DNA of 64,000 bases from Patescibacteria group bacterium. Its GTDB lineage: Bacteria; Patescibacteriota; Patescibacteriia; UBA9934. Location of the stretch: the NCBI GenBank assembly GCA_038064675.1, contig JBBTSM010000003.1, positions 38,663-102,662 on the forward strand, written 5' to 3'. Shown here in pieces: positions 19,094 through 21,100 of the stretch (its first letter is position 1; every line of letters begins with the position of its first letter). Below the pieces are notes generated by a model. The model had not been told where the DNA came from and ran no database searches. It saw nothing but the letters and a program-made list of their open reading frames with translations. The position numbers and the translations under genes are program-made.

Positions 19094-21100
19094 TTACCCA
19101 ATCATACGGAGAAACTCCGCCTCAGACAAGACAGGAACGCCCAGTTTTTGCGCGTCCGCAAGCTTCGATCCTGGCGCTTCCCCGGCCACAACATACGTCG
19201 TTTTCTTGCTCACACTCCCAGACACTCCCCCACCAAGCAAACGAATCTTCTCCTTTGCTTCGTCGCGACCAAGTGCGTCCATCGTTCCCGTCAGTACAAA
19301 TGTCTTGCCATCGAGCACACGCTTCACTGCTTTTGCTTTCGCGATGACGACGCCAACATTGCGATATGCTTCGATGATTTCTTTTCCGTAATCGGTCTGG
19401 AAAAAGTCGGCAATGCTTTGCGCGACGGTTTCGCCAACATCAGGAACGTCCGTCAAGTCCGAAATCGAAGCAGCCGCAAGCGCATCGATGGATCCGAACG
19501 CCAGCGACAATGCAAACGCGGTTTCTTCACCAACATGACGAATGCCAAGCGCGACAATGAACTGATCAAGATCGATAGTCTTCCGACGTGCGATCTTATC
19601 GACCAACTTGTTCGCCGAAATATCGCCGAATCCTTCAAGATCTTTCAGGTCGCCGATTGTCAGTGCGAACAAGTCTGGTGGAATACGAATGATATGCGCG
19701 TTAAACAGTTTTTCGATCACTTTGTCGCCGAGTCCATCAATAGCAAAGGCACGAGCAGCATGAAGGAGATGCTCACGTTCTTGTGCAAAACATTGCGCGT
19801 TCGAACAGACTAACGCGACCTCACCCGTTCGACGAATCACATCAGCACCACACATCGGACACTTCGCAGGCAGCACGATCGTTTTTTCTTTTCCAGTACG
19901 CAATTGATCGAGCACCTTCGTAATCTTTGGAATAATGTCTCCAGCTTTCGTGAGAATCACCGTGTCGCCAATCTTTAGACCAAGACGCTCAATCTCATCG
20001 GCATTGTGTAGCGTTGCATGCGTGACGGTTGTTCCAGCGATGAACGTCGCATCAACGGTTGCTACAGGAGTAAGTGCGCCGGTTCGCCCCACAAACCAAT
20101 CCACCGATAACACTTTCGTCGTCGATTCTTCTGGCGGAAACTTCCATGCAGCGATTCCGCGCGGAGTTTTACCGACCACGCCAAGTCGAGCAAACGTTCG
20201 ATTGGCGTTGACGCGAATCACCACGCCGTCAATCCAGAAATCAAGCTTCTCTCTGCGCTTCCCGAGTGATTCAAAGAACGCACGAATGTCACCGACCGAT
20301 TTGCAATACTCGCCAGGCGGCGTCACGAAACCGAGTTTCTGTAGTGCATCGATCCCTTCTTCCTGGGTTTCGATATCAACTCCCTCTTGTAAGCGCCAAG
20401 CAAAAAATGCCAGAGGACGACTCGCGGCAATTGCGGGATCAAGCTGACGGATGCTTCCTGCCGAAACGTTTCGTGGGTTCGCGAACTCTTCAAGGCCTTT
20501 TTCTTTTTGTGATCGATTCAGTTTCTCGAATCCAGACTTTGGCATGTACACCTCTCCTCGAATTTCAATGCGACCCCTCACCTCCCCCCGACCCCCTCCT
20601 TCGTAAGGAGGGGGAGTTCTCAGTTTCAGTGGAACAGTTTCAATCGTACGAATGTTGTGCGTAACGTCTTCGCCGATGGCGCCGTCGCCGCGCGTTGCTG
20701 CAGAAATTAATACACCGTCCTCGTACACTAAGCTCATCGCCAAGCCGTCAACTTTCGCCATCGCGTAATAATCGATTTCGTCGTGACCACCAACTTTCTT
20801 GATGCGATTCTCCCATTCCCGAAGCTCGTCAAACGAAAAGACGTCTTCAATGGAAAGCATCGGAGACTTGTGCGTAATCTTTGAAAACTTATCGAGCGCT
20901 GTTCCTGCAACACGCTGCGTTGGCGAATCAGACGTGATGAGATCAGGATATTCGTCCTCGAGCATCTTCAACTCATGTTTCAGTGCATCCAAAGCCGCCT
21001 CGGAAATCTCCAAGGAATCGAGCACGTGGTATTGATAGCGATACTCATTAATCGCATCTCGTAATTTAGCGATTCGCACCTTTGCCTCGGCCTTGATCAT
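19094..21100 (-). CDS. ligA: NAD-dependent DNA ligase
   Basis: Adenylation-domain KxDG region ([10 protein letters not shown]), EVRGEV motif, Zn-finger cysteines (CPMCGA...C), HhH and BRCT C-terminus. Start reassigned to [15 protein letters not shown] (21100). The upstream 70-codon extension is rejected. Confidence 0.95.
20577..20617. repeat. GC-rich palindromic element inserted in-frame in ligA (encodes [12 protein letters not shown])
   Basis: ccccccgac + CCCCCTCCTT-cgt-AAGGAGGGGG (10-bp stem). Related to the DUF559 inverted-repeat arms and to copies in uvrB and mnmA. Confidence 0.7.

Follow-up and report, generated by a model that had tools for sequence, protein, structure and literature searches.

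Abundant G/C-rich intrastrand triplex motifs (TMs), which follow the pattern C-stem/loop/G-stem/N3/G-stem, have been described in bacteria (Holder et al. 2015; PMC4666352). The TMECO family, with the consensus 5'-CCCTCNCCC N3-6 GGGNGAGGG N3 GGGNGAGGG, corresponds to the BoxC repeats of the 1990s (Bachellier) and to the potential intrastrand triplex (PIT) elements reported by Hoyne et al. 2000; it forms a stable triplex in vitro, as seen by circular dichroism and nuclear magnetic resonance, occurs as singlets and inverted pairs, is associated with local genome rearrangement, and is always intergenic, with no mobility genes nearby (PMC4666352). In the stretch analyzed here, 64,000 nucleotides of the genome of a Patescibacteria group bacterium (contig JBBTSM010000003.1, referred to as the window), a GC-rich palindrome lies in frame inside ligA, the minus-strand gene of the NAD-dependent DNA ligase. 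An earlier note on this DNA had pointed to the palindrome and to the extra peptide encoded by it, and both are real, with a perfect hairpin and an intact reading frame. We consider it quite likely that this palindrome is the hairpin part of a triplex-forming repeat of ~34 nt, which would have arrived by an event at the level of DNA and is tolerated in a loop of the enzyme.

The elements of the window resemble the BoxC/PIT/TMECO repeats in being short (~30-37 nt) and dispersed, in occurring as singlets and inverted pairs, and in occupying sites that are hypervariable between close relatives. They differ from TMECO in their stems (CCCCCTCC or CTCCCCC, compared to CCCTCNCCC), and also in that the window copies are translated in ligA and uvrB (and in gatA of a relative) and form the ends of a cassette with a gene for a DUF559 endonuclease. 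Complementary stems, a mirror third block, and a copy number above chance are all found, whereas the consensus stems and the strictly intergenic placement of TMECO are not. The same architecture built with different stems thus places the window element in the BoxC/PIT/TM class, outside the TMECO family. No Rfam family matches the element at either gathering or permissive thresholds, with only sub-threshold noise from eukaryotic microRNA hairpins. Palindromic repeats in frame in conserved protein genes, tolerated as extra surface segments, are also known from the small genomes of host-dependent bacteria in the form of the Rickettsia palindromic elements (RPEs; Ogata et al. 2000; PMC3184786). 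However, RPEs are ~105-146 bp long, AT-rich, confined to Rickettsia, and without a triplex third block or a nuclease gene, whereas the window element, which belongs to a member of Patescibacteria, is 31-42 nt long and adds ~10-14 residues, and thus is not an RPE.

The LigA of the window has the full set of domains (adenylation, OB, Zn-finger, HhH, and BRCT, as assigned with Pfam) and matches E. coli LigA (PDB 2OWO) with E = 8e-171. The plus strand at 20584-20614 reads ccccccga-CCCCCTCCTT-cgt-AAGGAGGGGG, with cacctccccccga on its 5' side and agttct on its 3' side, and the perfect hairpin, with 10-bp arms and a 3-nt loop, occupies positions 20592-20614. The exact 23-mer of the hairpin occurs once in the window, with no match within three mismatches in shuffled sequences. 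On its own, a hairpin of 10 bp would not be unusual in a stretch of 64 kb. The sense strand of the ligA copy forms a perfect three-block motif of eight triads, consisting, in this order, of a pyrimidine stem, the purine stem that pairs with it, and another purine stem that mirrors the first purine stem. The stems, CCCCCTCC(TT)/(AA)GGAGGGGG, pair over 8-10 bp with zero mismatches, and the third block, GGGGGAGG, separated by TCG, mirrors GGAGGGGG in 8/8 positions. The earlier note had included only two of the three blocks; the full motif, a 34-mer (CCCCCTCCTTACGAAGGAGGGGGTCGGGGGGAGG), reaches plus-strand position 20581.

Four three-block motifs are present in the window, compared to 0.1 on average in 30 shuffles that preserved dinucleotides, and the same architecture is found in the copy in uvrB and at both ends of the DUF559 cassette. 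The count of palindrome copies that the earlier note had proposed as a check thus came out in its favour, with the second TTCGTAAGG-centred copy being the one in frame in uvrB. Another 17 such motifs occur in 181 kb of the loci of relatives, which are a biased sample. In every copy, the second purine block beyond the purine arm is the mirror image of that arm and not its complement (Table 1), as is also true of the block GGAGGGGGG that is matched to the arm CTCCCCCCAT in locus L007. For an intramolecular triplex of the antiparallel purine motif, with G·G-C and A·A-T triads, what is needed is a mirrored purine repeat adjacent to its Watson-Crick pyrimidine partner, and the occasional change of A to T in the third block fits T·A-T triads. 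We propose that the third block would fold back on the hairpin in single-stranded DNA, forming antiparallel G·G-C and A·A-T triads. A G-quadruplex was rejected as a general explanation of the G-rich tail, as most copies, including those in uvrB and in the cassette, have only two G-tracts of at least three residues.

Table 1. Features of the window and block sequences of the triplex motifs (TMs) in the window and in the loci of relatives (L numbers). Positions are those of the window.
Feature	Position	Strand	Sequence or basis
ligA, NAD-dependent DNA ligase, 668 aa, host gene	19094..21100	-	Pfam domains and 2OWO match
Variable segment of ligA, 42 nt, 14 residues	20576..20617	-	DNA comparison with L010/L011 and alignment of 120 LigA
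Intrastrand triplex motif (TM) in ligA	20581..20614	-	direct reading and three-block finder
ligA TM, pyrimidine stem	20614-20607	sense	CCCCCTCC
ligA TM, loop	20606-20600	sense	TTACGAA
ligA TM, purine stem	20599-20592	sense	GGAGGGGG
ligA TM, loop	20591-20589	sense	TCG
ligA TM, mirror purine stem	20588-20581	sense	GGGGGAGG
uvrB, 689 aa, host of the second in-frame copy	59390..61459	-	open reading frame; homologues are excinuclease ABC subunit B with UvrB Pfam domains
TM in uvrB	60141..60171	-	CTCCCCCTT-ACG-AAGGGGGAG-TCG-GAGGGGG; three-block finder
DUF559 (Vsr-like PD-(D/E)xK) endonuclease open reading frame, 156 aa (predicted)	16453..16923	-	PF04480, E = 3e-33
Left 36-bp terminal inverted repeat	16461..16496	+	TM at 16464-16493 (purine-tail strand -)
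Right 36-bp terminal inverted repeat	16881..16916	+	TM at 16884-16913 (purine-tail strand +)
Left 7-bp direct repeat of the cassette	16451..16457	+	GATCATA (TATGATC on the gene strand)
Right 7-bp direct repeat of the cassette	16918..16924	+	GATCATA
LigA-loop hairpin, window			CCCCCTCCTT-acg-AAGGAGGGGG
LigA-loop hairpin, L003			CCCTCCCCTT-acg-AAGGGGAGGG
LigA-loop hairpin, L009			CCCCCTTCTT-acg-AAGAAGGGGG
LigA-loop hairpin, L008			CTCCCCCTT-acg-AAGGGGGAG
LigA-loop hairpin, L007			CTCCCCCCAT-tt-ATGGGGGGAG
Purine arm / mirror block, window			GGAGGGGG / GGGGGAGG
Purine arm / mirror block, L009			GAAGGGGG / GGGGGAAG
Purine arm / mirror block, L008			GGGGGAG / GGAGGGGG
Purine arm / mirror block, L011			GGAGGGAG / GGAGGGAGG
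Purine arm / mirror block, L003			GGGGAGGG / GGGGTGGGG

In the reading frame of ligA, the hairpin is translated as TPPPYEGGG, and the alignment with E. coli LigA has a gap of nine residues exactly opposite to it. The strand that follows, IEIRGEVY, represents motif III, and the GEVRG that precedes it is encoded by the tail of the element itself; this corrects the earlier note, which had placed a conserved EVRGEV motif immediately after the element. The corresponding sequence of E. coli LigA, quoted earlier as CEVRGEV, is actually ARLEVRGEVF. In an AlphaFold2 model of the window LigA made with 40 homologues (mean predicted local distance difference test score, pLDDT, of 83), the insert was modelled as a coil between residue ~159 and the strand 177-185 (RIEIRGEVY, motif III). 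Residues 161-170 average a pLDDT of 53, and the only stretch of the whole model with pLDDT below 50, residues 168-171 (GGGR), lies inside the insert. Thus, the element is predicted to occupy a disordered surface loop ahead of motif III. The mechanically delimited open reading frame (ORF) that holds ligA runs 70 codons further upstream, starting from a GTG (21101-21310 of the window, minus strand); since the homologues begin with MIKAEAK, this extension is probably not translated.

Comparison of 120 aligned homologues of LigA, together with loop DNA read from fetched contigs, reveals that the loop following PLKLR varies in length from 2 to ~38 residues. Four proteins that are 90-93% identical to the window LigA (P0002-4 and P0007) have no insert, with a loop (GSHS) that is 10 residues shorter and is encoded by 12 nt where the window has the 42-nt segment. 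The insert of P0001 (92% identical) is the same as that of the window, whereas P0005/6 carry another allele, SIxGIDLA. Similar peptides are found sporadically in more distant proteins, namely ALPPFMGGVGGGLA in P0008 (83% identity), PLPLTKGESEGVGDRGGLT in P0009 (82%), IPSPYQGGGKREVK in P0015 (81%), PPLLTKKGEGGKFM in P0037 (66%), and TPSPYEGEGWGGVFPD in P0118 (59%). The segment, which the earlier note had expected to stand out in an alignment of orthologues, is thus absent from the nearest relatives and patchy elsewhere, and in a neighbour-joining tree computed after masking of the loop, the TM-bearing LigA proteins fall into at least five clades interleaved with TM-less ones. The three unrelated loop alleles (GSHS, SIxGIDLA, and TM) also interleave on the tree among relatives that are more than 90% identical, which suggests frequent short-tract recombination or replacement in this loop. 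Many Uhrbacteria (P0038, P0041, P0044-P0066, and others) have in the same loop an apparently helical insert of ~29 residues, for example PDEAELKSLKKDFGLSDEVIEKVRSRA, which is a domain insertion at the protein level in the loop that hosts the TM elsewhere.

The peptides PSPYEGEG and PSPYQGGG, found in LigA proteins only 59-81% identical to that of the window, and the variable length of the loop in the whole clade, including the ~29-residue helical insert, could be taken as signs of an ancestral Pro/Gly-rich loop that was selected as a peptide, with the palindrome being incidental. The DNA of the loops argues against this explanation. Every long-loop variant examined as DNA contains a perfect C-rich/G-rich hairpin, and although the arms differ among the five lineages listed in Table 1, each difference in one arm is always compensated in the opposite one. 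The earlier note had considered that the same peptide, if found in distant taxa without palindromic DNA, would speak for an ancestral loop; such a case did not appear, as in both P0118 (TPSPYEGEGWGG) and P0015 (IPSPYQGGG) the palindrome is present and the changes in its arms are compensated. Additionally, translation passes through the TTACGAA centre in two phases: TAC-GAA, which gives Y-E, in the window, L003, and L005, and ACG-AAG, which gives T-K as part of the peptide LTK, in L008 and L009. The two reading phases, yielding unrelated peptides (YEGG and LTKGE) from one DNA core, exclude an ancestral peptide loop, and the patchy distribution over at least five clades, the identical motifs in non-coding DNA and in other genes, and the predicted disorder of the loop make this origin very improbable. 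Taken together, these sequences point to the ligA segment being a DNA element and not a conserved peptide.

The second in-frame copy, in uvrB, is translated as APPYEGGVGGG. An empty site is available for this copy in an orthologue that is 96% identical (P0122, encoded in L012), in which the corresponding region reads TQT-AD-FPGQ and is 36 bp shorter. In further relatives, this loop of UvrB is occupied by other variants, including a copy in Uhrbacteria GW2011_GWD2_52_7, and uvrB of L013 contains an in-frame inverted doublet, CCCCTCC-ATAAAT-GGAGGGG-19 nt-CTCCCCC-ATTTAT-GGGGGAG-TTGGAGGGGG. In gatA of L008, a TM is present in the opposite orientation, in a variable linker, with a net gain of three residues. 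Different variants in different phases have been acquired recurrently at the same loops. At the same loop of UvrB, the closely related proteins P0125, P0134, and P0146-P0148 have the inserts SGHPREGGDP, YPRAGGDP, and LPLGKGEPEG, sometimes duplicated; read at the protein level, these look like translations of a different family of palindromic repeats.

As the data are derived from metagenomes, and hairpins rich in G/C homopolymers are prone to error, a chimeric or mis-assembled G/C-rich sequence of low complexity has to be considered. Independent assemblies from NCBI and ENA (L001 and L002) share this ligA insert, another ENA contig encodes a UvrB protein (P0121) that matches the one of the window at 100% identity, insert included, and the reading frames are intact, so that an artefact of assembly or sequencing has a negligible probability. 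A function for the host would be another explanation of the ligA copy, either through an mRNA hairpin or internal Shine-Dalgarno-like GGAGG tracts that pause translation, or through an effect of the DNA structure on the transcription or replication of ligA. The sense strand does contain AAGGAGG and GGAGGTGA, the hairpin has a folding energy of -11.6 kcal/mol when folded as DNA (with ViennaRNA, which models only the hairpin, without the third strand), and the structure is maintained by compensatory changes in several lineages. However, the nearest relatives do not have the element, and the same element is found in unrelated genes in either orientation, as well as between genes. RNA is stated to be unable to form purine-motif triplexes (PMC4666352), and since the third block co-varies with the stems, the constraint seems to act on DNA, presumably in its single-stranded form, rather than on mRNA. 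Earlier work in vivo found no effects of PIT elements as promoters or terminators or on the polymerase (PMC4666352). For these reasons, a host function appears unlikely.

The ligA copy is therefore best described as an in-frame TM repeat, and the core of the reading proposed earlier, that a palindromic DNA insertion is tolerated as an extra loop in an essential gene, holds. The copy would have arrived by insertion or by short-tract replacement in the hypervariable loop that lies at the surface, immediately upstream of motif III. Stop codons are absent from five of the six reading frames of each copy, and the net changes of length at the coding copies are +30 bp in ligA, +36 bp in uvrB, and +9 bp in gatA; with five frames open, an insertion stands a good chance of surviving in a permissive loop if its net length can be divided by three. 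Survival of the ligA copy would thus be due to a net length divisible by three, to the open frames, and to a Pro/Gly-rich disordered loop that spares the nucleotidyl-transferase fold.

Several observations weaken this description or limit its reach. Compared with shuffles of the same G/C-rich 56-mer, the folding of the ligA hairpin has z = -1.75, so that the hairpin by itself is only slightly more stable than they are, and triplex folding of the ligA sequence itself is a prediction. In a test of the mirror tail on 351 other hairpins in the fetched loci, 103 had a perfect 7/7 mirror and 19 a direct repeat; however, as only the 7-nt core GGGGGAG was dropped from this set, longer arms selected by the search pattern, such as GGGGGAGG, were retained, and since these mirror by construction, the ratio overstates the independent support, which comes from arm types outside the search pattern and from the copies in relatives. 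The copy numbers and the coding fraction refer to 64 kb of the genome and to loci of relatives chosen via ligA and uvrB, and do not represent a census. A clean empty site was not found for the ligA copy, as the nearest TM-less allele has 12 nt in place of 42 nt, and the two alleles thus differ by a replacement rather than by insertion alone. The copies in ligA, uvrB, and gatA show no target-site duplication and have the look of short-tract replacements, and singlets may or may not move by the route taken by the cassette described below.

The DUF559 cassette is located 4 kb from the ligA element, at the junction between a gene for a 150-residue protein and lgt. Its terminal inverted repeats match perfectly over 36 bp, and each of them includes a complete three-block motif. 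In L001, L010, and L011 this junction is empty, with a single TATGATC, and the two genes overlap as GCGYTATGATCC. In the window, an insertion of 467 bp is present with TATGATC at both ends. The DUF559 ORF starts with an ATG that overlaps the upstream gene's stop codon and ends with a TGA that overlaps the start of lgt, so that both ATGA overlaps are regenerated; the first and the last ~14 residues of the ORF are the translated sequence of the TMs. A contig from an unrelated metagenome (L135) has a DUF559 protein of 56% identity with the same ends at the same junction, where TATGA is duplicated, and these comparisons of sequence suggest that the cassette moves as a unit. The predicted nuclease matches the PRK09767/YcjD-type NCBIfam model with E = 2.5e-23 and 82.4 bits, below the equivalog cut-off of 218 bits, and thus appears to be related to YcjD without being its equivalog. 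It also matches PDB 3HRL (E = 3e-17), and residues D77, E88, D90, H94, D103, and R106 are essentially invariant over 83 sequences that include the window copy and E. coli YcjD; the window protein has every residue that is ~100% conserved in 80 relatives. In a survey of the PD-(D/E)xK superfamily, VSR, DUF559, and DUF2726 were placed in one clade, together with a group I intron homing endonuclease.

Related loci differ at this junction and in their DUF559 genes. In L013, the two halves of the uvrB doublet are separated by 19 nt (CGCTCGGTGATAACCT) with homology to the sequence at the 3' interior end of the cassette in the window (CGCTCGATGATATCT), of which ~16 nt are kept, so that the doublet resembles an internal-deletion derivative of the cassette. 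The same locus has a second DUF559 gene between murC and secA (20340-20870), with three TMs having the loop TTGAAAA/TTTTCAA; one inverted TM is upstream and two direct copies flank the gene, an arrangement that differs from that of the window cassette. In L005 (14292-14776), the hyp-lgt junction contains a solo TM and a gene for a GIY-YIG endonuclease of 98 residues. This gene is enclosed by inverted repeats of its own, 27 bp long and unrelated (CCAGATCCTGARCGAAAGTGAAGGATC), so that the hot spot would host mini endonuclease cassettes of two kinds. In L008 (14204-14476), the same junction has an ORF-less insert of ~270 bp, which is C-rich at the left and G-rich at the right (GGAGGGGTTAGGGGGAGGAGGGGG) and may represent an element that is decayed or non-autonomous.

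The arrangement of the cassette resembles several known types of mobile DNA. As in MITEs, which are miniature transposable elements with inverted repeats, and in the Correia elements of Neisseria, the cassette and the L013 doublet look like an autonomous and non-autonomous pair with inverted repeats and a short duplication. The cassette has both inverted repeats and the 7-bp duplication, the ligA singlet has neither, and the L013 doublet plausibly fits; however, the cassette has no DDE transposase, the ligA and uvrB copies are single ends, and the size of the elements (31-81 bp) is below that of typical MITEs. Small selfish nuclease genes are also found among the free-standing and intron-borne Vsr-like homing endonucleases of the PD-(D/E)xK clade to which DUF559 belongs, such as I-Bth0305I (PMC3424549), which the cassette resembles in occupying the same precise site in the window and in L135 and in being absent from close relatives. 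It differs from them in having no intron or intein, and in its structured inverted repeats and duplication, which homing does not produce. A parallel in organization is also offered by repetitive extragenic palindromic (REP) sequences and REPINs with their RAYT proteins, which likewise combine short G/C-rich hairpins, singlets and inverted doublets, and one flanked protein gene, so that DUF559 would relate to the TM as RAYT does to REP. However, none of the copies carries a GTAG/CGTC tag, the flanked gene encodes a protein of the Vsr-like PD-(D/E)xK type and not HUH/Y1, and REPs are extragenic by definition, so the window elements are not REPs. A gene for an IS200-like Y1 transposase (PF01797, E = 6e-8) is present in L011 (4657-5295), between rnhA and pilM, and is absent from the syntenic region of the window; it is not flanked by a triplex motif, and a link to RAYTs was rejected. 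The small dispersed repeats (SDRs) of cyanobacteria, which Elhai and co-workers are said to have described in 2008, are reportedly 21-27 nt long, hairpin-forming, mobile, and also present inside genes; they differ from the window element in sequence family and host. We know of no enzyme identified for SDRs, and of no description of a triplex third block or a nuclease cassette in them.

To see how general the association is, we can consider 80 metagenomic loci with relatives of the window DUF559 protein (39-56% identity). Strict motifs, defined by 7-nt stems, a perfect hairpin, and at most one mismatch in the third strand, have a density of 1.85/kb within 260 bp of the DUF559 gene and 0.13/kb elsewhere, a 14-fold difference. 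With a looser definition, motifs are present on both sides in 25 of the 64 loci that could be tested on both sides. None of the 80 DUF559 genes has an internal stop codon. In E. coli K-12, a canonical TMECO is located 168 bp downstream of ycjD, and is the sole TMECO in that 10-kb stretch. In the same region (NC_000913 1351150-1351420; L215), a partial duplication of the 3' end of ycjD, ~70 nt long, is followed by the canonical TMECO, and a degenerate motif overlaps the stop codon of ycjD. The ycjD region of one enterotoxigenic E. coli strain has an IS1 and two DUF559 features. The arm variant of the window (CTCCCCC..GGGGGAG..GAGGGGG) occurs at at least 120 loci when one genome per species is scanned, compared to ~8 chance matches that we estimated by our own arithmetic under a uniform base composition. 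Among the matches listed are Bacteroidota, Saccharibacteria, Deinococcus, and Alpha-, Beta-, Gamma-, and Deltaproteobacteria, as well as Chloroflexota, Cyanobacteria, Elusimicrobiota, and Omnitrophota.

In this lineage of Patescibacteria, which the best named hits place close to Candidatus Uhrbacteria, the repeats would behave as very small mobile or recombinogenic DNA, in the form of singlets, inverted doublets, and the terminal inverted repeats of the 467-bp DUF559 cassette. The folded single strand may be what the machinery of mobility or repair recognizes, and we can speculate that DUF559 is the nuclease acting on the folded TM strand, an idea that we hold with reservation, at somewhat less than even confidence. 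A broader proposal, that the BoxC/PIT/TM repeats are non-autonomous partners of DUF559 proteins (YcjD-type, Vsr-like), mobilized in a REP/RAYT-like or homing-like manner with the folded structure being recognized, is put forward tentatively, as a possibility that may well prove wrong. Other observations speak against a strict dependency on DUF559. The orientation of motifs around the DUF559 genes is mixed, and across bacterial phyla a DUF559 gene adjoins just one of 143 motif matches. Another recurrent neighbour family was not found either in an all-against-all BLAST comparison of the 379 ORFs flanking these 143 matches. In complete E. coli genomes, the ycjD region is present in 3377/5426, whereas the TMECO part of the query is matched in 5145/5426. 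Thus, ~38% of the genomes have no ycjD region and yet TMECO is matched, which indicates that the repeats persist without ycjD and that the gene is not needed for their presence.

These observations lend weight to the alternative that the repeats spread and turn over without DUF559, by template switching during replication or slippage at the folded hairpin or triplex, by gene conversion from other copies, or by another transposase, with DUF559 and GIY-YIG being selfish genes that land in or beside TM sites because these are hot spots, either fragile or recognizable. This alternative is in agreement with the elevated local rearrangement at TMECO sites that have no mobility genes nearby (PMC4666352), with the single DUF559 neighbour among the pan-bacterial matches, and with the many E. 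coli genomes that have TMECO without ycjD. The solo TM with a GIY-YIG gene in L005 and the ORF-less insert in L008, both at the hyp-lgt junction, would fit a fragile hot spot, and the coding copies resemble replacements without target duplication. On the other hand, spread without DUF559 does not readily account for a cassette that has TM-containing inverted repeats of 36 bp and a 7-bp duplication and appears to move as a unit, for the ~16 nt of the cassette interior that are kept in the L013 doublet, or for the 14-fold local enrichment around 80 independent DUF559 genes. We regard it as a real possibility that falls short of being probable. Even if it were correct, the ligA copy would still be an in-frame TM repeat, and only the driver would differ.

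Outside the regions described above, a tRNA match in Rfam (55 bits, 102 nt) is located at 10492-10593 on the plus strand of the window and was not called by ARAGORN; this tRNA may contain an intron or be otherwise atypical. Searches of the literature for DUF559 in connection with repeats or mobile elements, for in-frame palindromes in Patescibacteria, and for ycjD together with boxC found no description, and although the repeat class itself is known, the in-frame copies in essential genes, the occurrence in Patescibacteria, and the DUF559-cassette ends appear to be unreported.

Since the 1990s, BoxC/PIT/TM repeats have remained orphans, and to our knowledge no way in which they spread has been established. 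The cassette, together with the statistical link to a large uncharacterised nuclease family that includes E. coli YcjD, provides a first concrete lead on the movement of this widespread repeat class. Triplex-motif repeats, which were thought to be strictly intergenic, can sit in essential enzymes as translated loops, which explains a part of the odd Pro/Gly-rich insertions in proteins of the candidate phyla radiation as DNA parasites rather than functional domains, with a bearing on annotation, phylogenetics, and structure prediction. The hypervariability of the TM-bearing loops fits the role proposed for such motifs in local genome instability. If the partnership with DUF559 is true, Patescibacteria would harbor a system compact enough to colonise permissive loops in frame, repeatedly remodelling the surfaces of LigA, UvrB, and GatA.

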